Source of the DNA: Candidatus Aminicenantes bacterium
Lineage (GTDB): Bacteria; Acidobacteriota; Aminicenantia; Aminicenantales; JAFGBC01
Direction of reading: 5' to 3'
DNA length: 64,000 nucleotides
Assembly: GCA_963702005.1 (NCBI GenBank)
Contig: OY969696.1
Location: 3,584,001 to 3,648,000, forward strand
The position numbers and the translations under genes are program-made. Positions 4,882-56,851 of the stretch are shown here, one piece after another (the stretch's first letter is position 1; every line of letters begins with the position of its first letter). The notes below the pieces were generated by a model, which worked only from the letters and a program-made list of their open reading frames with translations, made no database searches and was not told the origin of the DNA.

Positions 4882-6093
4882 ATGTGTGGCATGAACGCTA
4901 AAATCCGAATCCTCCCCGTCCTCATTCTATTCTCGGCGGCGGCCTGCGCGCTCCTCGCCCCGGCCTGCCGCCCCGCGGAGAAGCCGGCCGCGCCGGCGGA
5001 CGAAGCCGTCTATCGTCAAAAACCCGGCGCGCCCGACGAGACGATTTTATCCATGGACTTCGCCCGGATCTCGAAGCCCGGCGGCCTCGAAGAGTTCAAG
5101 CCCCTCTACCACACCCCGCCCGTCCAGCAGGGCAACACCTCAACCTGCTGGTCATTCGCCACGACCTCGCTCTTCGAGACCGAGCTCAAGCGCCTCTACG
5201 GGCTCGAGGTCAAGCTGTCCGAGATGCACACGGCATACTGGGAGTTCGTCGAGAAGGCGCGCCGCTTCATCCGCGAAAAAGGAAACTCGGCCCTCAGGGA
5301 AGGCTCCGAGCCCAACGCCGTCATCCTGCGGATGAAACAGTACGGCGCGGTACGCGAGTCCGATTATACAGGGCTCGTGGGCGGCGCAACCGCCTACGAC
5401 CACGACAGCCTCCACAAGGAACTCTGGGCTTGTCTTGAAGGATTCAAGGCCAGGAACGACTGGGACGAGGCCAAAGCCCTGGCCTCGGTCCGCGTCATCC
5501 TGGATAAGCACATGGGGCCTCCGCCCGAGACGATCGAGTTCGACGGCCGCCGCCTGACTCCCAAGGAATACCTTGATCAGGTCCTTAAGCTCCCCCTCGA
5601 CGATTACGTCGCCTTCACAAGCTTCAAATACACCCCCTTCTACAAGAAGGGCGAATATCGAGTCCCCGACAACTGGTGGCACAGCCAGGATTACTATAAC
5701 GTTCCGCTCGGCGAATTCTACGGCGCCCTGACCGGCGCCCTGGCCAAGGGCTTCACGGTCGCCCTGGCCGGCGACATCTCCGAGGCCGGCAACTACGGCC
5801 CCGAGGACATCGCCGTCATCCCGAGCTTCGACATCCCGCGGGAATTCATCAACCAGGACGCGCGCGAGTTCCGGTTCGCGAACAAGACCTCGACCGACGA
5901 CCACGTCCTCCATCTCATCGGGATATCCAAGCGGCCCGATGGCGACTGGTTCCTCCTCAAGGATTCCTGGCAGACGGCTTGGCAGGGCCGGTTCAAAGGC
6001 TATTTTTTCTACAGAGACGACTACGTGAAGCTCAAGATGCTGACCTTCCTCGTCCATAAGGACGCCGTCGCCGACCTCCTCGCCAAGTTCTAA
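4882..6093 (+). CDS. C1 family cysteine peptidase (aminopeptidase C-like), probable lipoprotein
   Basis: QGNTSTCWSF catalytic Cys, DDHVLH His and KDSW motifs. Alternative start at 4891. Confidence 0.88.
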   Translation: MCGMNAKIRILPVLILFSAAACALLAPACRPAEKPAAPADEAVYRQKPGAPDETILSMDFARISKPGGLEEFKPLYHTPPVQQGNTSTCWSFATTSLFETELKRLYGLEVKLSEMHTAYWEFVEKARRFIREKGNSALREGSEPNAVILRMKQYGAVRESDYTGLVGGATAYDHDSLHKELWACLEGFKARNDWDEAKALASVRVILDKHMGPPPETIEFDGRRLTPKEYLDQVLKLPLDDYVAFTSFKYTPFYKKGEYRVPDNWWHSQDYYNVPLGEFYGALTGALAKGFTVALAGDISEAGNYGPEDIAVIPSFDIPREFINQDAREFRFANKTSTDDHVLHLIGISKRPDGDWFLLKDSWQTAWQGRFKGYFFYRDDYVKLKMLTFLVHKDAVADLLAKF

Positions 6094-6103
6094 GGAGACG
6101 TTC

Positions 6104-8812
6104 ATGAAACTACGTTTATCCATCCTATCCGCTCTTATCATCCTACTGGCCGTTTTCGCGGCGGCGCCCTCGCTCCGGGCCGAGGACAAGCCGGTCCTCA
6201 CCCCCTGGACCGCGGACGACCTCATCAACCAGGAATCGGTCGGGAATTTCGCGATTTCGCCCGACGGCGCCTGGGCCGTCTGGACGAAGAGCACGACCGA
6301 TAAAGACAAAGACGGACGGATCAGCCGCTTGTTCCTTTCCTCGCTCAAGGAGGAGGCCGAGCCCTTCCAGCTGACCCGGGGCGATTCGAGCGATTTCGCC
6401 CCCCGCTGGTCGCCCTCGGGCAAGTTCATCGGCTTCCTCTCGGCCCGCAAGGTCCCCGGCGATAAAAGCGAGGCCGAAGGGGCCCAGGTCTGGCTCCTCG
6501 ACCGCCGCGGCGGAGAGCCCTGGAAGCTGACCGGCCTCCCGATGGGCGTCAGCTCCTTCGAATGGCTCGACGAGAACCGCCTCCTCCTCGCGGCCCGCGA
6601 GTCCCAGACCCTGCTCGAGCTCGAACAGAAGGAGAAAAAGGACTCCAGCCAGGTCGTCGAGGACCAGGAGCACATGGCGCCCCAGCGGCTGTTCGTCTTC
6701 GACATCAAAGCGCGGAAGGCCGAGCGGATCACATCGAACTCGGACCAGATCACGAACATCGAGCTCTCCCGGGACAAAAAGCTCGTCCTGACCCGGAACG
6801 AGCAGAGCGTCCGCTACGGCGTCGACAAGAAAATCAAGCCCAAGTTCTATCTCGTAGAGCTCGAAACCCGGGCCTCAAGCGAGCTCTTCCCCGAGCGCGG
6901 CTTCAAGCCCTCCTCCTTCGCCTGGGCCTGGGACTCCAAGGGTTTCTACTTCACCCGGACCCAGACGAGCGATTATGAGAACGAGGGCCCCGGCGCCGAA
7001 ATCCTCTACTACTACGACCTCGCCGCCAAGTCCTACGCGGAGGTCCCGATCGACTGGGGCTGGGGGATGTCCTACGGCTTCCTCCCCCGCGAGGACGGGT
7101 TCATCGCCGCGCTCGCCAACGGGGCCCGCCCCAAATGGCGTCGTTACGTCAAGGCCGAAGACTCCTACTCCTACAAGGAGCTCGAAGGCAAGCATTATCC
7201 CAATATCTATGGCTTCGACCTTCAGGAGGAAGGGACGGCGGCCGTCTACAGTTATTCGACGGCCTCCCAGCCCGTCCAGTATTACGTCGCGACGCTGGAG
7301 GGACCCGTCCTCAAGGGCGAGCGTCTCCTCCTCGAGCCCAACGGCGGGTTCAAGGACAAGCCCAAGGCCAAGACCGAGGTCCTCAAGTGGAGCGGCGCGC
7401 TGGGCGAGGAGGTCGAGGGCGTCCTGTACTACCCGCACGACTACATCGAAGGAAAGCGCTATCCCCTCATGCTCTCCATCCACGGCGGCCCGACCGGCTG
7501 GGACTCCGACGCCTTCGACGAGAATTGGGCGAGCTACCCCAATCTGCTGGCCCAGAAGGGCTCGTTCGTCCTTCTCCCCAATTACCACGGCTCGGGCAAC
7601 TACGGCCAAGCCTGGGCTGAATCCATCAAGGGCCGCTACTACGAGCTCGAGCTCGAGGACATCACCAAGGGCATCGACGTCCTCATCCGGAAGGGCATGG
7701 TCGATCCCGACCGGCTCGGGACCATGGGCTGGTCGAACGGCGGCATCCTGACGATCGGGCTCAGCGTCTGGACCGACCGGTTCAAAGTCGCCGGCGTCGG
7801 CGCGGCCGACGTCAACTGGACGAGCGACTACGGCAACTGCGCCTTCGGCGTCAGCTTCGACAACTACTATTTCAAGGGGACGCCCTGGGACGAGATCGAG
7901 CACTACATCCTGAAGTCACCCCTGTTCCATCTCAAGAACATGAAAACCCCGACCATCATCTTCCACGGGTCCGAAGACACCAACGTCCCCTATGAGCAGG
8001 GTTGGGAGTACTACCGAGCCCTCCAGCAGATCGGCCTGGCGCCGGTCCGCTTCATCAGCTTCCCGGGCGAGCCTCACGGCCTGCGCCTCCTGACCCACCA
8101 GAAGCGCAAGGTCGAGGAAGAGCTGGCCTGGTTCGACCGCTACTTCTTCAAGACCGAAGCAGCCCGCAACGAAGCCCTCAAGAAAGGCTCGCCTCTCGAC
8201 CTCCAAATCAAAAAGGCGGGCTTCGCGCACGCCGGCTCGCGCTACGGCGTCACGATCAAAGGCACGCTCGCCCCCGAAACGGTCCTCAGCGAGGGGCTGA
8301 ACGTCGGCCGCTTCGAGGTCACCCGGGCCCAGTGGGCCTCCTTCGACGGAAGCTACCAGGTCGAGCCCGGGACGGATGATTACCCGGCGACCGGGATGAG
8401 CTTCGATCAGGCCCAAAAGTACATTAAATGGCTGAGCGGCCGGACCGGCTTGAAGTACAGGCTTCCCACCGCGGCCGAGGCCGAGAAGCTCGCAGGGAAG
8501 GGCGGCGCCGACAACACCCTGGACTGGTGGGCCGGCTACACCCTCAACCCGGACGATGCCCGCCTCCTCCTCGACAAGGTCAAGACGCTCAAGGGCGCGG
8601 CATCGCTCCTCGTTCCGGTCGATAAATTCGACCCGGCCGGCGACGAGATGATCTTCGGCTTAGGCGGCAACGCGGCCGAGTGGGCCGTCGACGACAAGGG
8701 AAACGGCCAAGCTGTCGGGGCCTGCGCCGTTGCGCCCAAAGATCCTCAGGCCAAAAAGACGCCGCCGCCCTCCGCCTACACGGGCCTCCGCGTCATCAAG
8801 GAGGGCAGATAG
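6104..8812 (+). CDS. S9 family peptidase (propeller + alpha/beta hydrolase) with C-terminal FGE-sulfatase-like domain
   Basis: IHGGP, GWSNGG nucleophile, D and H triad motifs. C-terminal FEVTRAQW/YRLPT/GNAAEW/GLR motifs. Confidence 0.88.
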   Translation: MKLRLSILSALIILLAVFAAAPSLRAEDKPVLTPWTADDLINQESVGNFAISPDGAWAVWTKSTTDKDKDGRISRLFLSSLKEEAEPFQLTRGDSSDFAPRWSPSGKFIGFLSARKVPGDKSEAEGAQVWLLDRRGGEPWKLTGLPMGVSSFEWLDENRLLLAARESQTLLELEQKEKKDSSQVVEDQEHMAPQRLFVFDIKARKAERITSNSDQITNIELSRDKKLVLTRNEQSVRYGVDKKIKPKFYLVELETRASSELFPERGFKPSSFAWAWDSKGFYFTRTQTSDYENEGPGAEILYYYDLAAKSYAEVPIDWGWGMSYGFLPREDGFIAALANGARPKWRRYVKAEDSYSYKELEGKHYPNIYGFDLQEEGTAAVYSYSTASQPVQYYVATLEGPVLKGERLLLEPNGGFKDKPKAKTEVLKWSGALGEEVEGVLYYPHDYIEGKRYPLMLSIHGGPTGWDSDAFDENWASYPNLLAQKGSFVLLPNYHGSGNYGQAWAESIKGRYYELELEDITKGIDVLIRKGMVDPDRLGTMGWSNGGILTIGLSVWTDRFKVAGVGAADVNWTSDYGNCAFGVSFDNYYFKGTPWDEIEHYILKSPLFHLKNMKTPTIIFHGSEDTNVPYEQGWEYYRALQQIGLAPVRFISFPGEPHGLRLLTHQKRKVEEELAWFDRYFFKTEAARNEALKKGSPLDLQIKKAGFAHAGSRYGVTIKGTLAPETVLSEGLNVGRFEVTRAQWASFDGSYQVEPGTDDYPATGMSFDQAQKYIKWLSGRTGLKYRLPTAAEAEKLAGKGGADNTLDWWAGYTLNPDDARLLLDKVKTLKGAASLLVPVDKFDPAGDEMIFGLGGNAAEWAVDDKGNGQAVGACAVAPKDPQAKKTPPPSAYTGLRVIKEGR

Positions 8813-12270: not shown

Positions 12271-14262
12271 ATGAAAAAGGGGTATCCGTCCGTCCGCAAA
12301 ATCGCGTTTTCGGCTTGTGCCGTCCTGATCGCGCTCGCTCTTCTGAGCCCGAATTTTGCTCCCGGCGGCGGACCGCTCGCGCCGCCCGCGGAATCGAGGA
12401 CGGTCATCGGGCCTTACGGCGGGGACATCCGGGGCTTAGCCGCCAACCCAACCAAGCCCAAAGAAGTTTATGCCGTTTCCTACTACCAAGGCCAAGTCTT
12501 CAAATCCTCTGATTCGGGGGCGTCCTGGAAGAATCTGGCCGCTTTCGATTGCGAGCTCTACGATATCGCCCTGGCTCCCTCCGATCCCAACCGTCTCTAC
12601 GTGCTCGGGCAGGAGGGCGTATCGGTTTCCGAGGACGCGGGCGCGACCTGGACGGCTCGGGCGTTCGGGACCCGCTGCTACAGCAAAGCCTCTTTGGCCG
12701 TCGACCCCAAGGATCCGGACACGATCTATGTCGCGGGCTTTTTCCAGACGGATCCGAACCGCTACTGGATCACCTCCGCGGCATTCTTCATCTCCCGGAA
12801 CGCCGGGAAGACCTGGACGACGACGAAGCTGACGCCTTCGGGCAGCTGGGGTTCGTTATCCTGCTTCGACGTGTCCCGGGATCACCCGGACGTCTTCTAT
12901 GTCGCCGGCGATTGGTGGGATACAAAGTATAAACACCATTATATCGTCTTCCGGAGCGGCAACCGCGGCAAGAGCTGGAAAAACATCTCGCCGCCTTCTC
13001 TCAATAAAATTCCGACCGCGCTGGCGGCTGATCGCGGCGATCCCGGCCGCCTTTTCCTGACCGCCGACAGGTACGTCTTGAGAAGCTCGAACGGCGGAGC
13101 GACCTGGACGTCGACGGATCTTAAAGAACCGCTGTCGGCTGTCGCCATCGATCCCGCCCATCCCTCCCTCGTCTACGCCGGGGGGAGCTCGCTGGGTTTC
13201 CGAAGCCCGGACGGCGGCCTCAATTGGACCCGGTTCACGGGGATCGGGGGAACGGTCAAGGATTTCCTGTTCGGCACCGGCCGGGTCCTGGCGGGGACTT
13301 CGGCGGGCGTCTTCAAGAGCGCCAACAACGGGCAATCCTGGAGCGCCAGCCACCAGAACCTCTGCGCCATGAATGTCGAGACCGTGCCGGTTTCGCCCTC
13401 TTCCCCCCAGGTCGTCTACGCGGCCCTGCCCGGGATCGGGCTGTCCCGGTCGGCAAACGGCGGGAAGTCCTGGGCCAGGCAGGGAACGTCTACGATCTGC
13501 GGCGGTATCGTCGACCTCGCCGTGCGCCCAGACAATCCGGATTGGTTCATCGCCTCCGTCATGGGCTGAGGCAACTCGGGCGTCTACAGGTCTGTAGACG
13601 GCGGTAAAAAAATGACTCGAGTGGCTGTCCTCTTCGCCTACGATCTGGCCTTCAGCGCGACCTCGCCCCAGGTCATTTTCGGGACCGGCTTCTCCAACGG
13701 GATCTCGTTCTTCATGTCCACGGACGGAGGGACCACCTGGGCGACGCGTTCGGTCGGAGTGCCGGGCGAGGGCCACACCCTGGCCCTGGATCCCCGGGAC
13801 GAGAATATCATCTATATCGGCGGACGGCACAGGCTCAATACCTCTACATTAACGTATGAGACGATCGTCTCCAAGAGCCTGAACGCCGGCCAAAAGTGGA
13901 CCCACATCACGGGGAAGGTCGGCGGAACGATCATTCGCGCGCTCGCGATCGATCCCGGGACGCCGAACCGGATCTTGGCCGGCTCCGACGCCGGTATTTA
14001 TCGGAGCGAGGACGGCGGGGCGAATTGGACGCAGGCTCTGTCCGCAGATATCTACTGCATGAAAATCATAGCCTCGACGCCCAAGGCGGCCTACGCCGGG
14101 GGGCCGGCCGGGCTTTACATCAGCCTGGATGCCGGCAAGACCTGGACGGAATCCGTCGAAGGGATGACGGTCAAATACGTCCAGTGTCTTGACGCGGACA
14201 AAGCCCAAAAGACGATTTATGTTGGAACTTACGGAGGGAGTATCCTTAAGATCCGGCGCTGA
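12271..14262 (+). CDS. Secreted Asp-box/BNR beta-propeller protein 1 (663 aa) with in-frame UGA at codon 433, candidate selenoprotein
   Basis: Track ORFs 12217..13569 and 13612..14262 share a frame and are separated by one TGA (13567-13569). Read-through gives ASVMG-U-GNSGVYRSVDGGKK, continuing an Asp-box. A SECIS-like hairpin follows. Confidence 0.8.
13567..13602 (+). promoter_or_regulatory. UGA plus SECIS-like hairpin
   Basis: TGA-N11-CGTCTACAG-GT-CTGTAGACG with perfect 9-nt arms. Contains CAGGTCTG, as in the E. coli fdhF SECIS apical region. Confidence 0.78.
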
Positions 14263-14335: not shown

Positions 14336-14377
14336 TCGTAGCAGTTCACAGGTTCCCATGAAACGGGGGATTCTTCC

Positions 14378-16360
14378 ATGAATAAAAAGATGTTTTTACT
14401 TTGCGGCGTCTGGGCCTGCCTCGGTTTCATCGGACTGGGCGCGGTTTCCGACGACCCGCCTTTCTCTCCGCCCGCGGAATCGAGGACGGTCATCGGCCCT
14501 TACGGCGGGGATATCCGGGGCTTGGACGCCAACCCGGCCAACCCTAAGGAAATCTACGCCGTCTCCTACAACAGGGGGCAGGTCTTCCGTTCCACGAATT
14601 CCGGCGAAACCTGGACAAGCATCGCCGCCTTTGATTACGAGCTCTTCGATGTCGCCGCGGCTCCCTCCAACCCGAACGTCATCTATGCCCTGGGCAAAGA
14701 GAGAATTTTCAAGTCCAGCGACAAAGGGGCGACCTGGAAGGAGTACGAGTTCGGCACGCGGAGGTACGCCACAGGGCATATCATCATCCATGCCAAGGAC
14801 CCAAACGAGGTCTACGTCGCCGGCTACTTCCAGACGGACCCAAATCGAGGGGAGGCCACCTGCCCGGCCTTCCTTAAATCCCAAACCGGCGGGAAAACCT
14901 GGACGGTGACGAAAGTCAGCACGAATTCCCTCTCCGGCTCAATGACCTGCCTCGCCCTGTCCAAGAAGCATCCCGCCGTTTTCTATGCCGGCACGACATG
15001 GCGGAATGCCTTCTATAAATACTATTATGGGTTTTGTCGGAGCGACGACGGCGGCCAGAGCTGGAAGGACATCTCGCCCGCCCTGGACGGCGCCGCGTGT
15101 GATGCGGCGGTCGATCCCGACGATCCCACCCGCGTCTTCCTGGCCGCTAGTACGACCATCTGGCGCAGTGAGAACGGCGGATCGAGCTGGGCGACGACAA
15201 AACTCCAGCCTTTAACGGCTTTGGGCATGAATCCCGCCCTCCCCCAAGTCCTCTATGCCGGAGGCTCCGGGCTGATCTACAGGAGCCTGGACGGAGGGCT
15301 CCACTGGACCCAGCCCCAGGCGTGCGGCGGTTCGGCCCAGGACTTTCTGTTCGGGTCCAGCCGGGTCCTAGCGGCTACTTCAAACGGCATTTTTAGGAGC
15401 GACAACAGCGGATCATCCTGGAAGGCCAGCCATCAGGGCTTGAGCGCCATGAACATCACGACCCTGGCCGCCGCCCCTTCCTCCTCCCAGGTCCTCTACA
15501 CAGCCGTCAGCGGCTGCGGATTGTACAGATCCGGCAACGGAGGAAAAACCTGGTTGAGGACGGGGACGGGGTCGCCCTGCGATAATATTATAAGTCTCGC
15601 CGTGTGCCCGGAAAATCCCGATTGGCTCTTCGCGACCGCCTCCGGTTGAAGCAATTATGGCGTCTACAGTTCTGTAGACGGCGGAAAGAAGATGCAGCGT
15701 CTGTCGAGTATTCTCGTCTATGCCCTGACCATCAGCCCAAAATCATCTCAAGTCATTTACGGACTGGGCTATGGGATTAAATTCTATAAGAGCTCGGACG
15801 GAGGGAAGTCCTGGGTAACCCGCGTTCTCGGAAACCAGACGTACCAAAACGCCTTGGCTCTTGATCCCGAGAATGAAAACATCATCTATATTGGCGGTTT
15901 CCACTGGACAGCATCCCTTGCGGCGCGACGAAAGGGGCGCGACCGATCCGGGTGGACGGCGGTTGTCTTTAAGAGCACGAATGGCGGACAGGCCTGGAGC
16001 GGAATCACCGGGAAGATCAAAGGGACCCGGCTTTATGCGCTCGCGGTCGATCCCAAGACGCCGTCCCGGGTTTTCGCCGGAACCGATCTCGGCCTCTACA
16101 GAAGCGAAAACTCCGGCGCGAGTTGGACCGAAGTCCTCAAGGCCGATATCAATAGCGTGAAGGTCATTTCCTCCAATCCGAAAGCCGTCTACGCCGGCGG
16201 CCCTTCGGGCCTTTATCTCAGCCTGGACAGCGGCAAGACCTGGACGAAATCCGTCGAAGGGATGACGTCCAAATACGTCCAGTGTCTTGACGCGGACAAG
16301 GCCCAGAAGACGATTTACGTTGGAACTTACGGAGGGAGTATCCTCAAGATCCGGCGCTGA
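14378..16360 (+). CDS. Secreted Asp-box/BNR beta-propeller protein 2 (660 aa) with in-frame UGA at codon 424, candidate selenoprotein
   Basis: Track ORFs 14378..15649 and 15692..16360 share a frame and are separated by one TGA (15647-15649). Read-through gives ATASG-U-SNYGVYSSVDGGKK. Paralog of the upstream gene. Confidence 0.8.
15647..15682 (+). promoter_or_regulatory. UGA plus SECIS-like hairpin
   Basis: TGA-N11-CGTCTACAG-TT-CTGTAGACG, with the same stem and spacing as in the paralog. Confidence 0.75.
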
Positions 16361-35808: not shown

Positions 35809-36402
35809 TCAGAATTCCCGGCCGAGCCGGAAGGCCCGCGCCAGATTCTGTTCCCGGTAGGTATCGACCTTGGGCAGCATGCCGCCCAGGATTTCCATCC
35901 TCGCCTCGGCGACGCCGATCCCGAGAAGTCGGTCGTTAAGCATGATACAGCGCATGGCCTCGGCGATGCCGATCTCCTCGAGGTGCTCGATCGTGTGCCC
36001 GGCCGGGCAGATGACGAGCGCCTTGCGAATCCGAATCCGCGTCCCACGGTTTTCGTCGGTATCGTAGAAATAAGCGTATCCGTATGTCCAGACCCGGTCG
36101 AACCAGCCTTTGAGCTTGGCCGGGCAATCGCTCCACCAGACGGGGTAAATGAAGGCCAGGGCGTCGGCCCGGGCGATCTTCTCCTGTTCGGTCCGAACGT
36201 CGTCGGGGATAAGAAGGTCCGGGTCCCGGCCGACTTCACGTTCATACTGGGCGGCGTCCATTTCGGACAGGAAATCCCCGGCGTAAAGATCGGCGACCTC
36301 GAAGGTGTGCCCGGCCTCGTCCAGGCCCCTGGTGAACGCATCCAGGACGTCCCGGCAGAAAGATCTCCGGGCCGGGTGGGCGTAGAGGATATAGACATGC
36401 AC
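35809..36402 (-). CDS. NAD(P)H dehydrogenase (quinone), flavodoxin-2 family
   Basis: YAHP and FIYPVWWSDCPAKLKGWFDRVW motifs. Confidence 0.88.
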   Translation of the reverse strand: MHVYILYAHPARRSFCRDVLDAFTRGLDEAGHTFEVADLYAGDFLSEMDAAQYEREVGRDPDLLIPDDVRTEQEKIARADALAFIYPVWWSDCPAKLKGWFDRVWTYGYAYFYDTDENRGTRIRIRKALVICPAGHTIEHLEEIGIAEAMRCIMLNDRLLGIGVAEARMEILGGMLPKVDTYREQNLARAFRLGREF

Positions 36403-39424: not shown

Positions 39425-40449
39425 TCAGGCCTTCTGCATGTCGCACAGAAAGCCGGGGATGACGGCCAGGGAGCCGCCCGCCAGCGCGGCTTTGATCGGA
39501 CAGACCCAGCAGTGCCCGATCCGGGGGCATAAAAAGCAGGGCCCCCGGGGCGTTTCGGACCGGTCCATGGAAAACCGGGCGTAATGGGAGGCCGTCCGGC
39601 GCGCGGCCGCTTCGGTCCATCGCGACGGGAGCCGGACCGACCCGAATGAATAGCGCCGTAAAGCGGCCGTATCGCCGCGGTCCCGAATATAATCCGCGAA
39701 CAGGACGCAGCCCCAAACTCGTCCCTCGGGATCCACCGCCATCCGGTCTTTCCCGGCGCTGCAATAGCGAAGGCGGCGGGGCGCGGCCTCGCGAAAGTTC
39801 ATGACCGGGCTTCGGTCGATCGTACCGTATCGGTCGAGGACGCGGAACCTCAATCGCTTCAATTCGCGCCGCAGCCGGCCGATGTCCGCGGCCGCCCACG
39901 GCTCCAATACCGACAGGCTGTAGCGGACCCGAGGAACGCCCCGCTCCAGGAGCTCGATCAGGGTCTCGGCCAGGGACCCGACCCCGGAGGGCGTGAAAAC
40001 GCTGTTGGTTTCGAGCCGGATCCGGGGCCGGGATGCGATCCGGTCGATCAGGGCGAGAATGCCCTCCCGGCTGCCCGCCCGCCTCTGGATGTTCTGCCGG
40101 GTCCCGTCATAGCTTAAGGTGACCGCGAACCGCTCCGCCTCGAAAAAGCCGAGGACAGCCTCGTCAACCAGGCTGCCGTTGGTGGTGATCGAGAAGCGCG
40201 GACGCCGTCCCCTTCCCCGACAGGCCGCCCGAACGCGGGCGACCGTCTCGCGGATCAGGTCGAACTCGAGAAGCGGCTCTCCCCCGTAAAAGGCGAGGAC
40301 GAAATCCCGGTTCAGGCGCGGCAAAAAAAAACGACGGCCCGGCGGGCGACCGCATCCGTCATCCGGGTCGGCCGACGCGTCTTATAGCAGTAGCGGCAGC
40401 GGAAATTACAGTCGTCGGTGACGACGAGCGCCAGCAACCCTAAGCCCAT
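39425..40449 (-). pseudogene. Radical SAM/SPASM protein, frameshifted at a T9 run
   Basis: ATG 40449 gives MGLGLLALVVTDDCNFRCRYC. After T9 (40323-40331) the frame continues FYGGEPLL, ITTNG and SPASM cysteines (CSAG...GC...CFLC..C..CP). T10 restores the frame. Confidence 0.82.
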
Positions 40450-42799: not shown

Positions 42800-44875
42800 T
42801 CAGGCCTCCCGGCCCTCGACGACGGACAGGAACGACTCGATCCTGAGCCGGATCTGCTGACTGTCCGAAGGGGAATAATCGGTCTCGATCATAAGATAGG
42901 GAAGGCCGCGTTTGTCCTCCACGTGGCGACGGACGGCCCGTGCCTCAACGCTGTAAGTATGGCAAGCGCTCCAGACGAGGTCGATGACACCCTGGGGATG
43001 GAACCGCTCGATGAGCTCGTCAAGGAGCTCGAACCGGCCCGTGTTAGGCGTCATGCATGAGCAGGGCAGATGAAAATATTTCCGGGCGATCGCTTCGAGC
43101 GGATCGCCCTCGAGGCTGATATCCTCGACCAGCGGCTTGAGGCCCGTGCAATTTTCCTGAGCGACCACGACCGCTCCGGCTTCCTCGACGATGTCGATGA
43201 CTTTTTCGGCGCCGTGGGGCATCGGAACTCCCGTCATCAGGATGCGCGTCTTGCGGGAGGGAACGGCCTTGGCCCGGGCCTGCTCGATGACCGCCCGATA
43301 GGCCGCCAGGTCCTGGGGGATCCCGGAAATGAGGTTCTTGGCGTCCAGAATCTCGCGCCCGCTGAGCCCTCGTCCCCCGAATTCGGCGATCGTCCTGCGC
43401 AGGCGCCGCTCCTTGTTCATGAGCCGGATCGCCCGGCGGAGGCCCGTCCGGGTGATCCTAGCCCCCGTCAGTCTCTCGAGACGCTTCTTGAGGAGCCTGA
43501 CCTCGGACAGCCAGTGGGCGAAGGCTTCTTCCTGATCGGGCTTTTGGGTCAGCTCGAGCACGTGCATCGGCTTTGTCCGGCCCATAAGCTCATACATCTT
43601 CTTCTTGCCGTCGCAGGTCGTTTCGGCCACGATGAGGTCGGCCATCTCAAAAATCGGGTTGGCTTCCTCGAGCATGAAGCCGTAGGAGGACTTGATGAGG
43701 GGGCAGAGGTTGACCGGGAGTTCCCGCTCTCCGGCCAGGGCCATCTCGTGGCTTCCGCCGCAGGCGCAGACGGGAACGGCTCCCGCCGCCAAGATAAGCT
43801 CGCGGGGCGTGTATTCGCAGAAAATGCAGACGATCTTCTTCCCGGACGCCTTTGCCTTCCGGGCGTGATCGATGGCGATCGTGACCATGCGGTCGAACCT
43901 CTTGAGGGCCGGCACGGAGTGGAGATGAGCGGCCGCGCCCGAGGAGCCGGATTCGACCGGCCGCGTTGAGGACGCGGGAGCGGCTTCGGACGTTCCGCAT
44001 CGTGCCGGCTCGCCGTCCCGTCCGGCCGAGGGTCCGATCGGACCACTTTCCAACTTAGCCTTAGGGAGACGGCCCGATGCCAGGACCGTCCTCTTTCCGA
44101 TTTTCCGGGCCGCAAGCAGGGCCGCGCCCAGAGCGCCCGTCAGTCTGGGATCCTTAGGAACCCATAAGCGTTCCCTGAGCTCCCGGCCCAAAGCGATGAC
44201 CATGGCCCTGTTCAAGGCCACCCCTCCGGTGAAAACGACGGGCGCTTCGAATCTTCTCCGCTCGGTCAACCCGGCCACCCTCCTGGCGATGGCCCGGTGA
44301 ACGCCGGCGGCGATCTCCGGCCTCCCCACCCTTTTAGCTAGAAGGCCGATGACCTCGCTCTCGGCGAATACGACGCAGGTCGAGCTGATCTCGAGTTCGC
44401 GGCGGGCCCCGGCGGCGAGCTCGGCCATCCCGTCGATGTCCGTCCTCAGGATGCCGGCCACGACTTCGAGGAAGCGGCCCGTGCCCGCCGCGCAGCGGTC
44501 GTTCATGGCAAAATCCTTGACCGAGCCTTCGGCGGACAGATAGATGGACTTGCTGTCCTGGCCGCCGATATCGATTACGGTCCGCGCCCGCGGAAACAGG
44601 GCCAGCGCGCCCACGGCATGACAGGTGATCTCGGTCACGACATCGCCGCCGAGCTCGGCCGTGTAGCGCCCGTAGCCGGTCAGGATGGTGGCGGCGACAT
44701 GAGAGGGCCGCAGCCCGGCCTCGTTCAGAACGGCCTTGAAGATCCGTTCGGCGTCGGAGCGATGATCGCCGGTCGCGTCTGCGACATGCGCGGCTACCAC
44801 GACGCGGCGGCCGGTGTCGAAGAGGATCGCTTTGACGGCCCGGCTTCCCAGGTCGATACCGGCGGTGATTTTCAT
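42800..44875 (-). CDS. Fused ATP-dependent activase (HgdC/DCCP-R type) and double-cubane cluster / 2-hydroxyacyl-CoA dehydratase-family reductase
   Basis: N-terminal GIDLGS, TGYG, TEITCH, DIGGQDSK, CAAGTG and ISSTC motifs. C-terminal NLCPLIKSSYG, ETTCDGKKK, ENCTG, PCSCMTPN and CHTY motifs. Confidence 0.85.
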   Translation of the reverse strand: MKITAGIDLGSRAVKAILFDTGRRVVVAAHVADATGDHRSDAERIFKAVLNEAGLRPSHVAATILTGYGRYTAELGGDVVTEITCHAVGALALFPRARTVIDIGGQDSKSIYLSAEGSVKDFAMNDRCAAGTGRFLEVVAGILRTDIDGMAELAAGARRELEISSTCVVFAESEVIGLLAKRVGRPEIAAGVHRAIARRVAGLTERRRFEAPVVFTGGVALNRAMVIALGRELRERLWVPKDPRLTGALGAALLAARKIGKRTVLASGRLPKAKLESGPIGPSAGRDGEPARCGTSEAAPASSTRPVESGSSGAAAHLHSVPALKRFDRMVTIAIDHARKAKASGKKIVCIFCEYTPRELILAAGAVPVCACGGSHEMALAGERELPVNLCPLIKSSYGFMLEEANPIFEMADLIVAETTCDGKKKMYELMGRTKPMHVLELTQKPDQEEAFAHWLSEVRLLKKRLERLTGARITRTGLRRAIRLMNKERRLRRTIAEFGGRGLSGREILDAKNLISGIPQDLAAYRAVIEQARAKAVPSRKTRILMTGVPMPHGAEKVIDIVEEAGAVVVAQENCTGLKPLVEDISLEGDPLEAIARKYFHLPCSCMTPNTGRFELLDELIERFHPQGVIDLVWSACHTYSVEARAVRRHVEDKRGLPYLMIETDYSPSDSQQIRLRIESFLSVVEGREA

Positions 44876-44880
44876 CCAAC

Positions 44881-44922
44881 GCTCCTTTCAGTGGGAATCT
44901 GGCCGCTCCCCCTGAAAGGAGC
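44881..44922 (-). promoter_or_regulatory. SD-sequestering hairpin
   Basis: GCTCCTTTCAG pairs perfectly (11 bp) with CTGAAAGGAGC, which contains the SD of the downstream gene. Confidence 0.75.
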
Positions 44923-44935
44923 CGGGCGGGGCTTT

Positions 44936-45031
44936 TCAGACGAGAGCGGAATTCGGGCTCTGACCGGGAAGGGATCGAACCGATCCCCTAAATCCCGCTC
45001 AGGACGAGTTGAGGATGAGCCATGGTCTCAT
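44936..45031 (-). other. Leader ORF MRPWLILNSS-(UGA)-AGFRGSVRSLPGQSPNSALV with SECIS-like hairpin
   Basis: SD TGAAAGGAG 9 nt before ATG 45031. TGA at 45001-44999 is followed by a GGGATCG-GTT-CGATCCC stem at +12..+28. Confidence 0.6.
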
Positions 45032-45237
45032 CGTCCCGCTCTCCTTTCAAGAGATGCCCCGGAGTAGGCTCCGGATCAGATCCGTCGGTGAGAGAATAAA
45101 TACCATCGGGGGACTCTAAAGTCAAGGCGGCAACCTAGCTACAGCGGCGAAGGCTCACGACGGAATTGACTTCATACCTCCGTTTTAATATTCTCGTTGA
45201 GAACGAACATGGAAGGACGGCTCGCATGGAGGGAGTC

Positions 45238-46161
45238 ATGAAGAAATTCGAAAGAACGGCTGTCGTCGGACTCATTATCGTCATTGGACTGGCGTCGACC
45301 TTGGCGGCGGCCGATAAGGCCGCGATCCTCGATCAGAAGTTCGAGGCGGGCTTGAAGGCCGTCGCCGACGGCTTGGACGGAGTCATGGGCTATGCCATCA
45401 AGGATATCAAAACGGGGAAAGCCTATCTTCTCAACGAGAAGGAGGTCTTCCCCCAGGCGAGCTCCATCAAGATCGCGATCCTGCTCGAGGTCTTCAAGCG
45501 GGCCGAGGAGGGAACGCTTAAGCTCGACGAGAGGATCGACCTCACCCCGGACAAGAAGGTCGCCGGGAGCGGCGTCCTCTACTATCTCGGCTTCCCGTCG
45601 CTCAGCCTTTCCATCAAGGACATCTGCGTCCTGATGATCGTCCTCTCCGACAACACGGCCACGAACCTCCTGATCGACCGGGTCGGGATGGAATCCGTCA
45701 ACAAGCGGATGGACGCGCTCGGCCTTCCCGCCACCCGGCTACGGCGCCGGATGATGGACCTCAAGGCCGCCGCGGAAGGCCGCGAGAACGTCTCGACGCC
45801 CCGGGAGATGATGACTTTACTCGAGAAAATCTGGAGCGGCGCCGTTCTTAAAGAACCCCTGCGGACGGGGATGCTCGATATCCTGTCTATCGAGAAGGAG
45901 AGCCCCCTGCGCGCCGGCGTCGCGGCCGTCGCAGAGGACATCGCCGTAGCCGAGAAGCCGGGCGAGCTCGAAGCCGTCCGTTGCGACTCCGGGATCGTCT
46001 TCCTCAAAGACCGGCCTTACATCATCTCGGTCATGACGACCTATCTCAAGCGGGACGGCGACGGCAACCCGGCCATCGCGGCCGTCTCGCGCCTGGCCTT
46101 CGAGCATTTCCTGAGGCTCAAGCGCTCGAGCGACCTGGGCCGGGTCGTTTCGATGAAGTAA
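45238..46161 (+). CDS. Serine hydrolase, class A beta-lactamase-like
   Basis: ASSIK (SxxK), SDN and KPG motifs; signal peptide. Confidence 0.85.
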   Translation: MKKFERTAVVGLIIVIGLASTLAAADKAAILDQKFEAGLKAVADGLDGVMGYAIKDIKTGKAYLLNEKEVFPQASSIKIAILLEVFKRAEEGTLKLDERIDLTPDKKVAGSGVLYYLGFPSLSLSIKDICVLMIVLSDNTATNLLIDRVGMESVNKRMDALGLPATRLRRRMMDLKAAAEGRENVSTPREMMTLLEKIWSGAVLKEPLRTGMLDILSIEKESPLRAGVAAVAEDIAVAEKPGELEAVRCDSGIVFLKDRPYIISVMTTYLKRDGDGNPAIAAVSRLAFEHFLRLKRSSDLGRVVSMK

Positions 46162-46183
46162 GGGCTGGCGGCTCCGTCGCCGA

Positions 46184-47308
46184 TCAGAACGGCCCTTCGA
46201 CTCCCAGGCCGGGCCGGTCGTTGAGGAAGATGCGGCCCTTCTCGGTCCGGACGCCCTTGAAAGGATCGTTGCTGATAAGCACGTTCCCGTCGAGGTCCAG
46301 GTCGTCGAACAGGGGGGCGACGGCCGCCGCGGCCGATATCCCGATCGAGGTCTCGACCATGCAGCCCAGCATAATCTTGAGACCGAGGGCGCGGGCCATG
46401 GCCGCGATCCGGACCGCCTCCTGGATCCCGCCGCACTTCATGAGCTTGACGTTGATCCCGTGGAAGGCCCCGGCGATTCGGGGCAGGTCGGCCGTCATCA
46501 TCAGGCTCTCGTCGGCGAAGATCGGGATCGGACTCCGCTCCTTGATCCAGGCGATATCGTCGAGCTGGGCGGCCGGCATCGGCTGTTCCATGAGCTCGAC
46601 CCCGAGCCCGGACATCCAGCGGATCATCTCGAGCGCCTGCTCCTTGTTCTTCCAGCCCTCATTGGCGTCCACGCGGAGGGGTTTGTCGGTGACGGCCCGG
46701 ATCCCCTCGATGATCGCCCGGTCGTTGTCGGTCCCGACCTTGATCTTGTAGACCGAGAAATCGGCCGCTTCCTTGACCTTCGCCTGCATGACCGGGACCT
46801 CGTCGATCCCGATCGTGAAGGTCGTGACGAGGTCCTTGCCTTTGTCGAGCCCCAGAAAACGGTAGAGAGGCAGGCCGAGCTTCTTCCCGATCCAGTCGAG
46901 CATGGCCATGTCCAGGGCGGCCTTGGCGGCGTGCTCGCCCGGGGCGAGCGCGTCGATTTCATTCCAGAGGTCGTGGAACGTCCAGAGGTCTTTTTGAAGG
47001 ATGGGCTTGGCTTTCTCGATGAAGGCCAGCCCGCTCTCGGCGCTTTCGTTGTAGCGGGCGATCGGCGCCGATTCGCCCAGGCCGAAGACGCCGTCCTTTT
47101 CGAGCCGGACGAGGACGTTGCGGCGCGTGGTCCAGGTCCCCCGCGACAAGGTCCAAGCGTGTTTGAGTTGAACCTCATAGACCTTGGCGTCGATTCGGCA
47201 ACTCCCGACGACGCCCGCTGGAAAGGGAGCCGCGGCGCCCCGCCGGCCCGGCATCAGGGACCCGGCCATGGTCAGGCCGGCCAGCTCCAGGAATTCTTTT
47301 CGTTTCAT
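46184..47308 (-). CDS. L-Ala-D/L-Glu dipeptide epimerase with Tat-like signal
   Basis: KIKVG, DANEGW, EQP, ADES, KLMKCGG and DLDG motifs; N-terminal KRKEFL. Confidence 0.88.
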   Translation of the reverse strand: MKRKEFLELAGLTMAGSLMPGRRGAAAPFPAGVVGSCRIDAKVYEVQLKHAWTLSRGTWTTRRNVLVRLEKDGVFGLGESAPIARYNESAESGLAFIEKAKPILQKDLWTFHDLWNEIDALAPGEHAAKAALDMAMLDWIGKKLGLPLYRFLGLDKGKDLVTTFTIGIDEVPVMQAKVKEAADFSVYKIKVGTDNDRAIIEGIRAVTDKPLRVDANEGWKNKEQALEMIRWMSGLGVELMEQPMPAAQLDDIAWIKERSPIPIFADESLMMTADLPRIAGAFHGINVKLMKCGGIQEAVRIAAMARALGLKIMLGCMVETSIGISAAAAVAPLFDDLDLDGNVLISNDPFKGVRTEKGRIFLNDRPGLGVEGPF

Positions 47309-47494: not shown

Positions 47495-48400
47495 ATGATA
47501 AAAAGTATTACCGGCATCATTCTCGTTTCATTCGTTGCGCTCGGATCGGGATTCGGCGAGACGCCCCAAGCCGGCGTCGTCGTCAAGGGGGTTGAAAACA
47601 TGTATTCCAAGCCCGACGACGCCTCGGACGTCGTCAGCCAGGCCCTGCTCGGTGTCACCGTCAAGATCCTCGCTTCCGAAAAGAGCATTAAGGCCGAGGA
47701 TTGGTACAAGGTTGAAACGCCCGACACCTACCAGGGCTGGATGGCCGGTTCCGGGCTTCGGATCTATAAAGAGGGAGAGCCCGCCTACGCCTCCCGGGGC
47801 AAGGTCTTCGAGGTCACGAGCCTGCTGGCCCTGGTCTACGAAACGCCCGACGTGACCGAAAAGAAACCCCTCGTCAAGGCCCCCATCTCGGCCTGTCTCG
47901 AAGCGGGCGCGCCCGAAGAGCGCTGGTGCGAAGTGACGCTCCCCTGCGGCGCCAAGGGGCACATCCAGGTCGGAGACGGCGTTCTGCGCGAAGCGGGCTT
48001 CAAGCGGCCGCGCCTTGCCCCGGAAGAGACGGCCGCCCTCGCCCAGCGCTTCCTGGGCCTCCCCTATCAATGGGGGGGCAATTCGCCGCTCGGGATCGAT
48101 TGCTCCGGTTTCGCCCAGCTCCTCTACCGCCTGAGCGGGGTCGAAATCCTCCGCGACGCCGACATCCAGCGCGACAAGAGCGGCCTGGTCGAAGTCGCCA
48201 AGGGCAAAGAGGAGACGACCGACCTCGTCTTCTTCGGCAGTGCGCCCGACAAGATCGGCCATGTCGGGATGATGATCAGCCGGACCCAGTTCATCCACGC
48301 CACGACCCACGACAAGCCCGTCGTCCAGATTTCGACTTTGGCCGATTCCTACTGGCAGTCGATCTACCAGGGCGCCCGGAGGCCAAAGAAGAATTCATGA
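47495..48400 (+). CDS. SH3-NlpC/P60 (YkfC-like) gamma-D-glutamyl peptidase
   Basis: PYQWGG, DCSG, RDADIQ, GHVG and FIHA motifs; two SH3b-like regions. Confidence 0.88.
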   Translation: MIKSITGIILVSFVALGSGFGETPQAGVVVKGVENMYSKPDDASDVVSQALLGVTVKILASEKSIKAEDWYKVETPDTYQGWMAGSGLRIYKEGEPAYASRGKVFEVTSLLALVYETPDVTEKKPLVKAPISACLEAGAPEERWCEVTLPCGAKGHIQVGDGVLREAGFKRPRLAPEETAALAQRFLGLPYQWGGNSPLGIDCSGFAQLLYRLSGVEILRDADIQRDKSGLVEVAKGKEETTDLVFFGSAPDKIGHVGMMISRTQFIHATTHDKPVVQISTLADSYWQSIYQGARRPKKNS

Positions 48401-54578: not shown

Positions 54579-55714
54579 GCATGATCCGGGACCGGATCCG
54601 GCCCGTCGTCAGGAAGGAGCTGCGGCAGATCCGGCGCGACCCGCGGACGCTCGTCCTCCTCCTGGCCATGCCCATCTTTCTCCTCATCATGTACGGCTAC
54701 GCCCTCAACTTCGACGTCAAGCACATCAAACTCGCCCTCTGCGACCAGGACCGGAGCCGGTCGAGCCGCGAATTCGCCGGGATCTTTCTCCACACGGAAT
54801 ATTTCGACCTGGTCAAGACGATCCCCGACCCGGCCTTGATCGACGCCCTCATCGACCGCGGCCTAGCCAAGGCCGGACTGGTCATCCCGCACGGATTCGG
54901 GGCGGACATCGCGGCCGGCCGCTCGCCGGCCGTCCAGGTTCTTCTGGACGGCTCCGACCCGACCAGCGGCGCCACGGCCGTCGGCTATATCAACACGATC
55001 GCCCTGACCTATTCCATCAAGCTCGTCACGGTCCGCCTCGATCGTTTCGGGATCTCCGGGACGCAGCCGCCCCTCGACCTCCGGCCCCGAGTTTGGTACA
55101 ACCCCGAGCTGCGGAGCGTCCGCTTCCTGATCTCGGGGCTGATCGCCTTCATCCTGATGACGGTCGTCGTCGTCTCGACGGCCTTCTCCGTCGTCCGTGA
55201 GAAGGAGCGGGGGACGATGGAGCAGATCCTCGTCTCGCCCCTGCGTCCTCTGGACCTCATCGCCGGGAAGACCATTCCCTACATCTTCATCTCGCTTGTC
55301 TCGAGCCACGCCGTTTTATTGGTGGCCGCCCTCCTGTTCGAAGTGACGATCAAGGGGAGCTACTTATGGCTCCTGGCCGTCATGCTCCTGTTCCTGGTCG
55401 GAGGCCTGGGGCTGGGGATCCTGATTTCGACGGTGGCCCGGACTCAGCAGGTCGCCTTCATGATGGCCATTTTGATGACACTTCTCCCGACCTTCATCCT
55501 GTCCGGGTTCGTCTTCCCGATCCGGAACATGCCGGCGGCCGTCCAGGTCGTGACCTACTTCGTCCCGGCCCGCTACTTCCTGAGCGCCCTGCGGGCCGTC
55601 CTCCTCAAGGGGGCCGGGCTCAAAGCCTTCTGGGACCAGCTCCTCTTCCTGTTCGGGTTCGCGGCCCTGATGATCGGAGCCAGCGCGGTGCGGCTCCGCA
55701 GGGGGGAGGGATAA
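54575..55714 (+). CDS. ABC-2 permease (YbhS-like)
   Basis: KELRQIRRD, WYNP, REKERGTMEQ and LSGFVFP motifs. Confidence 0.9.
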   Translation: MSMIRDRIRPVVRKELRQIRRDPRTLVLLLAMPIFLLIMYGYALNFDVKHIKLALCDQDRSRSSREFAGIFLHTEYFDLVKTIPDPALIDALIDRGLAKAGLVIPHGFGADIAAGRSPAVQVLLDGSDPTSGATAVGYINTIALTYSIKLVTVRLDRFGISGTQPPLDLRPRVWYNPELRSVRFLISGLIAFILMTVVVVSTAFSVVREKERGTMEQILVSPLRPLDLIAGKTIPYIFISLVSSHAVLLVAALLFEVTIKGSYLWLLAVMLLFLVGGLGLGILISTVARTQQVAFMMAILMTLLPTFILSGFVFPIRNMPAAVQVVTYFVPARYFLSALRAVLLKGAGLKAFWDQLLFLFGFAALMIGASAVRLRRGEG

Positions 55715-55723
55715 AGGGATCCC

Positions 55724-56851
55724 ATGACGGTCGGATCCATCATTCGCAAGGAGTTCGCCCAGGCCCGGAGGGACCGCCGGATGGTCTTCATCATGTTCGC
55801 GGCGCCCGTCTTCCAGCTGCTTCTGTTCGGATACGCAGCCAACCTCGACGTCCGCGACATCCCGATCGCCGTCTGCGACCTCGACCGGAGCCCGGCCAGC
55901 CGCGAGATCCTGGCCTCGTTCACGAACTCGGGCTATTTCACGGTCTCGGCCCGGGCCGAACGGCTCGAGGAGATCGACGGGCTCATCGACAACGGCCGGG
56001 CCGCCCTGGCGATGATCTTCCGGCGCGGGTTCGGATCCGATGTCCGGGCCGGCCGGCCGGCCTCCATCCAGTTGATCGTCGACGGAACCGAAAGCCGGTC
56101 GGCCCTGATCGGCCTCAACTACGCCGCCATGATTACGGGCCGGGCCAGCCAGCGCCTCCTCCTCGAAACGATCGGCCGCCGCCTCCCGGCCGGGGCTTTC
56201 GAGCCGGGCCTGGTCGAGCCCGCCTTCCGCGTTTGGTACAACCCCGAGCTCCGCAGCCGCTCCTTCATGGTCCCCGGCGTCCTGGCCCTGATCCTCCTGA
56301 TGATGACGATGATGTTGACGTCAATGGCGATCGTCCGCGAGAAGGAGACGGGGACCCTCGAGCAGCTCATCGTGACCCCGATCCGGCCCTGGGAGCTCAT
56401 CCTGGGCAAGCTTCTGCCCTTCGTCCTGGTCGGCCTCGCCGACGTCACCCTCATCTTGGGCGTGGCTAGATTCTGGTTCCGGGTGCCGCTCCGGGGGAGC
56501 GTCCCGCTCCTCTACGGACTCAGCCTCATCTTCATGCTGAGCACGCTCGGCCTGGGACTTCTCATCTCGACCGTCTCCCGCAACCAGCAACAGGCCATGA
56601 TGACTTCAGCCTTCACCATGATGCCCATGTTCCTTCTGTCCGGGTTCGCTTTCCCGATCGAGAACATGCCCCAGATCATCCAGGCCGTGACCTACCTCAT
56701 TCCACTCCGCTACTACTTCGTCGTCATCCGGGGCATTTTTCTCAAGGGCGTCGGGCTGGCCGCCCTCTGGGATGAGGCCCTGGCCATGCTCGGACTGGGA
56801 GCGGCGCTTTTGGCGCTGAGTGTAGTCCGCTTCCGGAAGAAGATCGAGTGA
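55724..56851 (+). CDS. ABC-2 permease (YbhR-like)
   Basis: WYNP, REKETGTLEQ and LSGFAFPIENMP motifs. Confidence 0.9.
   Translation: MTVGSIIRKEFAQARRDRRMVFIMFAAPVFQLLLFGYAANLDVRDIPIAVCDLDRSPASREILASFTNSGYFTVSARAERLEEIDGLIDNGRAALAMIFRRGFGSDVRAGRPASIQLIVDGTESRSALIGLNYAAMITGRASQRLLLETIGRRLPAGAFEPGLVEPAFRVWYNPELRSRSFMVPGVLALILLMMTMMLTSMAIVREKETGTLEQLIVTPIRPWELILGKLLPFVLVGLADVTLILGVARFWFRVPLRGSVPLLYGLSLIFMLSTLGLGLLISTVSRNQQQAMMTSAFTMMPMFLLSGFAFPIENMPQIIQAVTYLIPLRYYFVVIRGIFLKGVGLAALWDEALAMLGLGAALLALSVVRFRKKIE

Follow-up and report, generated by a model that had tools for sequence, protein, structure and literature searches.

Bacteria sense amino acids with leader peptides and many metals and metabolites with riboswitches. 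In Escherichia coli, selenocysteine (Sec) insertion sequences (SECIS) follow a rule of 11 nucleotides (nt) between UGA and hairpin. The leader of the E. coli sel operon also has a SECIS-like element, which is not known to have a decoded UGA mini-open reading frame (mini-ORF) and which is placed where the regulated sel genes start. Leaders of the tnaC and ermC types have tryptophan or antibiotics as their ligands, which act in the exit tunnel. Published accounts add that the apical loop of bacterial SECIS has a conserved G (PMC1794560), that efficient UGA-SECIS recoding in E. coli needs sufficient selenium (PMC4513850), and that E. coli SelB is autoregulated (mentioned in PMC8124441). Cysteine-responsive short ORFs of mycobacteria are a further case of leaders that sense a charged tRNA (10.1101/834739). 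Here we describe a leader element upstream of a fused activase/double-cubane reductase gene of a Candidatus Aminicenantes bacterium. It lies in a stretch of 64,000 nt (NCBI GenBank assembly GCA_963702005.1, contig OY969696.1, positions 3,584,001 to 3,648,000 of the forward strand), which we call the window. All leader coordinates are window positions on the minus strand, where the element occupies 44876-45125. It is real, conserved, and structured. With a probability of roughly 0.55, judged from sequence, we read it as a Sec-decoding cis-acting leader that would couple translation of the double-cubane reductase operon to the supply of Sec-tRNA.

A conserved, structured leader

The original prediction for this locus was a leader-peptide attenuator that senses Sec. 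When the minus strand was read directly, every leader feature that it had described was in place. In the list and throughout, G000 is the genome of the window, other G labels are genomes, and L labels are loci or metagenome contigs.

45097-45125, minus strand: promoter-like TTGACT (45125-45120), 17 nt, and TATTTA (45102-45097), with TG two bases before the -10 hexamer
45059-45074, minus strand: 5' hairpin CCGGAG-CCUA-CUCCGG, close to where the leader RNA is predicted to begin, in the minimum-free-energy (MFE) fold
45036-45044, minus strand: mini-ORF Shine-Dalgarno (SD) sequence GGAG (45044-41), overlapping the box GAGAGCGG, as read in the sequence
44936-45031, minus strand: mini-ORF, with ATG at 45031-29, ten codons (MRPWLILNSS), UGA at 45001-44999, 20 codons, and the stop TGA at 44938-36
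44998-88, minus strand: 11-nt spacer from UGA to hairpin
44971-44987, minus strand: SECIS-like apical hairpin GGGAUCG-GUU-CGAUCCC (arms 44987-81 and 44977-71; loop 44980-78)
44960-45002, minus strand: lower stem CUGA/UCAG plus CGGGA (44997-93)/UCCCG (44969-65), with the UGA inside the helix, in local folds of G000 and L169
44942-44949, minus strand: box CCGCUCUC just 5' of the mini-ORF stop, seen in alignments
44881-44922, minus strand: SD-sequestering hairpin, with the anti-SD arm GCUCCUUUCAG at 44922-12, a loop, and the SD arm CUGAAAGGAGC at 44891-81
42800-44875, minus strand: regulated gene, a 691-amino-acid fusion of an activase ATPase and a double-cubane-cluster reductase

If the UGA, which is in frame in this putative ORF, is decoded, the predicted peptide is MRPWLILNSS-U-AGFRGSVRSLPGQSPNSALV. 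The box GAGAGCGG is complementary to CCGCUCUC at 44949-44942, and this pairing is present in the MFE folds. Downstream, a perfect 11-bp helix of GCTCCTTTCAG (44922-12) with CTGAAAGGAGC (44891-81) covers the SD of the gene that starts at 44875. In the closest relative (L169), both promoter hexamers are identical to those of G000, and the 5' hairpin is retained with one loop change. The equivalent promoter position in relatives holds the strong TTGACA-17/18-TAGAAT (L129 scores 11/12), and GAG(C/U)G boxes occur 5' of the mini-ORF start. The G000 leader promoter is missing from the output of a consensus promoter scan because its -10 hexamer, TATTTA, lacks the T that the scan demands at position 6. 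The leader RNA folds better than nearly all of its shuffled versions (z = -3.83; 1/200 shuffles was as good). ARAGORN ruled out that the hairpin is part of a tRNA or tmRNA. In an Rfam search at E values up to 10, four weak matches were found in 43500-46500, none of which overlapped 44876-45125. A known riboswitch had been named as an outcome that would speak against the prediction, and none covers the region.

We compared 11 distinct copies of the leader, drawn from six genomes and seven metagenome contigs. An in-frame ATG 6 to 10 codons before the TGA was present in 11/11 copies, versus 2/11 and 1/11 for the other two frames. The first stop was TGA in 11/11 copies, and the second stop, 18 or 20 codons later, was TGA in two, TAG in seven, and TAA in two. 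A spacer of 11 nt and a 7-bp stem followed the TGA in 11/11 copies, and the first base of the triloop was G in 11/11 (GUU, GUC in three, GGU in three, GGA in three, and GGC). Within the hairpin, 77/77 cells over the 11 sequences were paired. Two of its seven pairs showed compensatory changes: one is A-U in six copies and G-C in five, and the other is U-A in ten and C-G in one, the divergent G596 copy with GGGACCG-GGC-CGGTCCC. In the alignments, no part of the leader is better conserved across three families than this hairpin, and the core of the downstream box, CGCUCGUC, is almost invariant across all copies. When three helices were scored together, 90.1% of cells were paired versus 40-56% in slid controls. 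Seven pairs were changed on both sides, versus 2.8 +/- 1.2 in shuffles, and 0/500 shuffles reached seven, a control that is inflated by the relatedness of the sequences. Relatives of three families thus keep the features on which the original prediction hung, namely the mini-ORF with its UGA and the distance from UGA to hairpin.

The occurrence of the fused activase/double-cubane gene is sporadic. A search of 40 relatives found a full-length orthologue in G018 only. Across the 246 genomes of the order, 13 gave matches at E <= 1e-100, eight of them with the fused form. Six of these eight carry the leader (G000, G018, G597, G519, G515, and G596, in three families), and two from one genus (G542 and G570) have the fused gene without the leader. 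A pattern scan matched seven metagenome contigs, each of which (7/7) carries the leader in the same setting, and nhmmer found one copy of it in G000. A covariance model built from the 11 copies was run over 151 genomes of the order, and real matches were found only in the six known genomes; a match in G003 (27.9 bits) was rejected as lying inside a membrane-protein reading frame. A strict pattern matched only G000 among 401 genomes sampled from the phylum, a sample that G018 was outside. With the exact hairpin pattern (10 genomes), the G515 match was real, and those in G542 and G521 were taken as chance, being elsewhere in the genome with loops that are not G-first. A pattern with two mismatches matched 235/246 genomes of the order, which is noise, and it was discarded.

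We also looked at more distant loci. A protein-alignment scan of genome contigs gave 80 loci, mostly distant homologues. When nhmmer was run over 128 loci, including those 80, the matches were only the two loci of G000 itself and L019. A generic ATG-TGA-hairpin scan of 90 loci (the 80 plus L129-L138) found L129, L130, and a site in L053 that is on the opposite strand and likely due to chance. Distant homologues in other phyla had no such leader by nhmmer or by the generic scan. Among unfused paralogues, those of G024, G521, G453, and G605 had no leader upstream by nhmmer; for those of G518 and G040 the upstream stretch spans only 574 and 303 nt before the contig end.

The hairpin can be compared with candidate Sec signals of the same genome:

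12211-14262, plus strand: BNR/Asp-box (Sortilin-Vps10-like) propeller gene, in-frame TGA at 13567
~14340-16360, plus strand: second BNR/Asp-box (Sortilin-Vps10-like) propeller gene, in-frame TGA at 15647
G000:C1 ~1013350-1015059 (L176 350-2059, plus strand), outside the window: UxxC gene 1
G000:C1 ~2162569-2164092 (L177 370-1893, minus strand), outside the window: UxxC gene 2

The UxxC genes encode two secreted Thioredoxin_7+TPR proteins in which the TGA is the first position of a UxxC motif. In both, the TGA is followed by 11 nt and a 7-bp stem with a GUC or GGU triloop. The two propeller genes of the window have an in-frame TGA, 11 nt, and then CGUCUACA-GGUC/GUUC-UGUAGACG, an 8-bp stem; their hairpin itself encodes the Asp-box-like GVYRSVDGG. 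The original prediction had pointed to the same UGA-hairpin spacing in these two genes, and 11 nt is indeed what is seen at 13567 and 15647. Genome-wide, at least 14 BNR/Asp-box propeller paralogues, including the two in the window, belong to this family, whose pattern is TGA, 11 nt, and CGUCUACA-GGUC-UGUAGACG, and from these sequences the propeller genes look like a large candidate selenoprotein family. The leader hairpin therefore resembles Sec signals of the organism itself in its spacing, stem length, and kind of loop, all three of which are the same in the UxxC genes.

A genome without selB and selC would be a poor home for such a leader, as the original prediction recognized, and G000 has selA, selB, and tRNA-Sec. 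The selA match scored 561.7 bits and tRNA-Sec 73.8 bits, in one cluster with selB (255.3 bits, or 288.1 with neighboring stretches; cut-off 242.25). The relatives tested had selA in 5/5 cases and tRNA-Sec at >=73 bits in 4/5, with 50.2 bits in G597, a fragmented assembly. The sel cluster of G000 is 2.9 Mb away from the leader. On contig C31 of G018, the leader (35879-36026) has tRNA-Sec (48296-48388) at a distance of ~12 kb and selA (55107-56483) at ~19 kb.

The downstream SD is predicted to be buried in the free RNA, with a probability of being unpaired of 0.003-0.23 in the 8/8 leaders that were folded. In most copies the arms are CCUCUCCU/AGGAGAGG, the same SD columns are buried, and an inner GC hairpin shows C-G to U-A changes. 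G596 buries its SD with GCUUCUCCU/AGGAGAAGC, which carry compensatory changes, and G000 and L169 use a different 11-bp arm. The helix is kept in L169, where an A-to-G change gives a U-G pair. Covariation of anti-SD and SD among relatives had been proposed as a check, and the helix does covary. There was no terminator-like site in window positions 44700-45400. L129 has one weak terminator-like site, and its T-rich tail is absent from the other copies. The output of the leader looks translational, by SD sequestration.

Mechanism and rival explanations

In the mechanism that we favor, ribosomes would start on the mini-ORF of the 5' leader and meet the UGA after 6 to 10 codons. The apical hairpin that begins 11 nt past the UGA would present the geometry and loop of the organism's own SECIS. 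From this geometry we infer that SelB with Sec-tRNA(Sec) could bind and insert Sec at the UGA, in competition with release factor 2 (RF2). Ribosomes that read through would translate 18 to 20 more codons and stop 2 to 6 nt before the anti-SD arm (13 nt in the G000 lineage). A ribosome stopped there might open the SD-burying helix, and the operon would be translated at sufficient selenium. After release at the UGA, the SD would stay buried. The share of ribosomes that decode the leader UGA as Sec would then set operon translation; from sequence, we consider this selenium gauge an even bet.

Two features alone are universal across the lineages, the apical hairpin and its spacing from the UGA, and these are what a SelB signal would need. 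Therefore, we favor unmasking of the SD coupled to read-through. The gap between the mini-ORF stop and the anti-SD arm measures 2-6 nt in the f3 and f4 copies and 13 nt in G000 and L169. In constraint folding, a ribosome footprint at the mini-ORF stop raised SD exposure to 0.21-0.66 in 6/8 leaders, all of them with a gap of 2-6 nt.

Several observations weigh against this mechanism. In G000 and L169, the SD stays buried (0.02-0.03 and ~0.003, respectively) with a ribosome at either stop. Folding with footprints, a check that had been suggested for this locus, thus frees the SD in 6/8 leaders but not in the G000 type at either ribosome position, and the G000-type geometry is unexplained by the reading that we favor. 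A footprint at the UGA gave an SD exposure of 0.13-0.78 in some f3-type leaders and 0.005 in G519. Because the SD of part of the f3 type is thus exposed by a ribosome at the UGA as well, we lean only slightly toward expression being on with selenium over the reverse. The structure near the UGA also differs among the three lineages in local folds. The extended lower stem, CUGA/UCAG plus CGGGA/UCCCG, is found only in G000 and L169, and other lineages pair otherwise. The f3 type, to which G596 belongs, has the UGA paired directly opposite the region of the mini-ORF stop, with the box CCGCUCUC paired to the GAGCGG next to the UGA. The UGA of G519 and G515 is in a loop. An alternative pairing of GAGCGGG with CCCGGCTC had been part of the original prediction; it can be found in the sequences of G000 and L169, but it needs a bulge and is lineage-specific.

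In the f3-type copies, the mini-ORF SD is poorly spaced (GAGG 2 nt 5' of the ATG). Substitutions in the mini-ORF show no third-position bias, with variable columns after the UGA at 3/10, 4/10, and 4/10 by codon position. Past the UGA, almost every copy has the other two frames open as well, and sequence alone therefore gives no proof of translation beyond it. A search for sequencing runs gave seven entries, all of DNA. In addition, a loose scan for TGA plus hairpin found 858 sites in the 4.3-Mb GC-rich G000 genome. A single locus is therefore not beyond chance; a lone locus is weak evidence, and the case for the leader rests on conservation. Finally, the inverted repeat is also a DNA palindrome. 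Taken together, the prediction of a selenium-responsive leader gains from conservation, structure, and the presence of Sec machinery. It loses in that the alternative pairing is lineage-specific and that folding does not free the SD of G000.

The mini-ORF had been noted to be in frame with the downstream gene, with a third TGA between them. Both are seen in G000, where this TGA is at 44890-88, before the gene's ATG at 44875. The frame relation is a coincidence of G000, because the G018 leader is out of frame with its main gene and six loci have a methyltransferase gene first. An in-frame N-terminal extension of the main gene was rejected, since three in-frame TGAs precede it in G000 and G018 does not share the frame.

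The rival that survives best, which we still consider unlikely, is an ordinary translational leader in which the mini-ORF simply ends at the UGA and the SD-sequestering helices sense something other than selenium. The cue might be temperature, a metabolite, or a protein, or, more generally, the rate of translation or the activity of RF2. Such a leader would suit the lack of any codon-level signature of translation beyond the UGA, the altered fold that is predicted in some copies once a ribosome is at the UGA, and the frequency with which TGA plus hairpin arises by chance in the genome. However, it does not account for a first stop that is TGA in 11/11 copies when the second stop uses all three codons. 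The hairpin, which is better conserved across three families than the rest of the leader, has the exact 11-nt spacing, 7-bp stem, and G-first loop seen in SECIS of the same genome, and there is no Rfam riboswitch match to the region.

An improbable alternative is that the RNA is a SECIS-like decoy or operator that binds SelB, with or without Sec-tRNA, and that binding alters the fold or stalls the ribosome at the UGA without any read-through. The hairpin does have SECIS-type features, and the reported autoregulation of E. coli SelB (PMC8124441) would be a precedent. However, the hairpin is ~95 nt from the regulated start codon, which makes direct occlusion by SelB unlikely. The regulated genes are not sel genes, and conservation of an ATG in frame with the UGA suggests a role for ribosomes in the mechanism.

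We consider it hardly probable that the mini-ORF encodes a genuine small selenoprotein of 25-31 residues with its own role beside the double-cubane enzymes, such as delivery of selenium or metal. The ATG-UGA-stop frame is kept in 11/11 copies, the tail R-R-x-L-V/A is similar in most of them, and G519 and G515 have C-x-U. Yet third-position bias is absent, the residues beside U vary (NSS-U, NL-U, CR-U, and RL-U), and the conserved residues coincide with conserved RNA helices. Least credible, and very improbable, is that a dimeric transcription factor uses the 7-3-7 inverted repeat downstream of the promoter as its DNA operator, or that this repeat is a roadblock site: the palindrome is perfect and both compensatory changes preserve it, but no regulator gene is conserved adjoining the loci, the fixed TGA distance, in-frame ATG, and SD-burying helix would go unexplained, and the flanking pair 96-114 is G-U in 2/10 sequences (G000 and L169), a pairing that suits RNA rather than DNA.

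The operon and its neighborhood

The fusion protein has Pfam BcrAD_BadFG at residues 6-255 and HGD-D at 353-683. It scored 405.5 bits against NF040772 double_cubane (cut-off 350), and TIGR00241 also matched. Among solved structures, its closest relatives are 7yyl_C and 6eno_A, together with activators. The leader is directly 5' of the fusion gene in G000, L169, G018, G597, and G519. In L170-L172, L174, G515, and G596, the leader is followed by a gene for a class I methyltransferase of 262 residues, next by two HGD-D/double-cubane-like genes, and last by the fusion. In G597 (L129 ~1409-1500) and L173, ~17 start codons of the methyltransferase (MKPTGMKLEDVQGVYSG) are left between leader and fusion, and the TGA of this remnant overlaps the GTG start of the fusion in L129 and L173. 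This remnant indicates that the intervening genes were deleted. In the G597 lineage it is, to judge by its sequence, a deletion relic and now presumably a coupled second mini-ORF. We do not assign the methyltransferase as a selenium or arsenic methylase: its ArsM-like matches were weak and sub-threshold, and its best solved relatives are N-methyltransferases. A single in-frame TGA occurs in the G596 fusion gene (L133, C1:32003-33766), whose N-terminal part is poorly aligned; the genome is only 60% complete. An error of sequencing, decay of the gene, or a Sec codon could each account for this TGA.

The genes that flank the leader loci vary from one to the next, with no conserved regulator gene among them. 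G542 (L181 ~2640-2960) has the same promoter and methyltransferase/double-cubane operon, with a divergent gene in place of the leader. By eye, we take the N-terminus of its product to be ArgR/AhrC DNA-binding-like. G542 may have swapped the RNA leader for a protein regulator. In G000, the upstream neighbor is also divergent, and L169 shares it:

45238-46161, plus strand: class A beta-lactamase-family gene (PF13354)
45166-45194, plus strand: promoter-like TTGACT-17-TATTCT of this gene

In L172, a gene for a P-type ATPase (E1-E2 ATPase plus HAD; 5447-7555, minus strand) is directly 5' of the leader on the same strand, and the other loci are without it. Elsewhere in the window, ARAGORN found a tRNA-Val(GAC) of 89 nt at 39827-39915 (minus strand), which is unusually long for tRNA-Val.

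Comparison with known systems

Haft and Gwadz counted 955 of 970 strong NF040772 double-cubane proteins in SelD genomes, an unexplained association (10.1101/2022.07.06.499078). The original prediction had brought up a link between double-cubane proteins and selenium, and this preprint puts such a link in print. The leader bears on the puzzle of why nearly all strong NF040772 proteins sit in SelD genomes. If our reading is true, it would be direct genetic evidence that these enzymes need selenium or act on selenium compounds, and an operon gated by Sec decoding would make the selenium link testable by simple reporters. The leader would also be a compact, transplantable sensor of selenium or Sec-tRNA, and a cis-acting selenium-responsive switch of a kind not found in print. 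In a literature search whose scope was sources other than subscription journals, we found no bacterial leader that senses selenium through UGA/SECIS decoding.

The element resembles the fdhF-type SECIS of E. coli in its UGA, its distance of 11 nt, its short hairpin, the G (mostly with U) of the loop, and the accompanying selA, selB, and tRNA-Sec. In contrast, it is in a leader ORF of 25-31 codons, whose peptide shows no sign of selection, and it lies upstream of a buried ribosome-binding site rather than at the active-site codon of an enzyme. It shares with the SelB autoregulation of the E. coli sel operon a SECIS-type hairpin that is in a 5' leader and is regulatory rather than serving a selenoenzyme. 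Unlike that leader, ours has a conserved ATG-UGA frame, a distance of ~95 nt from the hairpin to the regulated start, and a double-cubane target.

As in the trpL, hisL, and pheL attenuators, decoding of a leader ORF would report on one aminoacyl-tRNA and set the expression of a downstream operon. The sensing codon proposed here is a UGA recoded by SelB and SECIS, not a run of sense codons, and, unlike a transcription attenuator of the trp type, the leader has no terminator-like site in 44700-45400. With the tnaC and ermC types, it shares an SD masked by an upstream strand and would share a ribosome whose fate at the end of the leader ORF decides the outcome, whereas the conserved part is an RNA hairpin after the UGA and not a peptide. 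The leader is best read as uniting a leader ORF with a SECIS; each of these devices is known, and it is their combination that is new.

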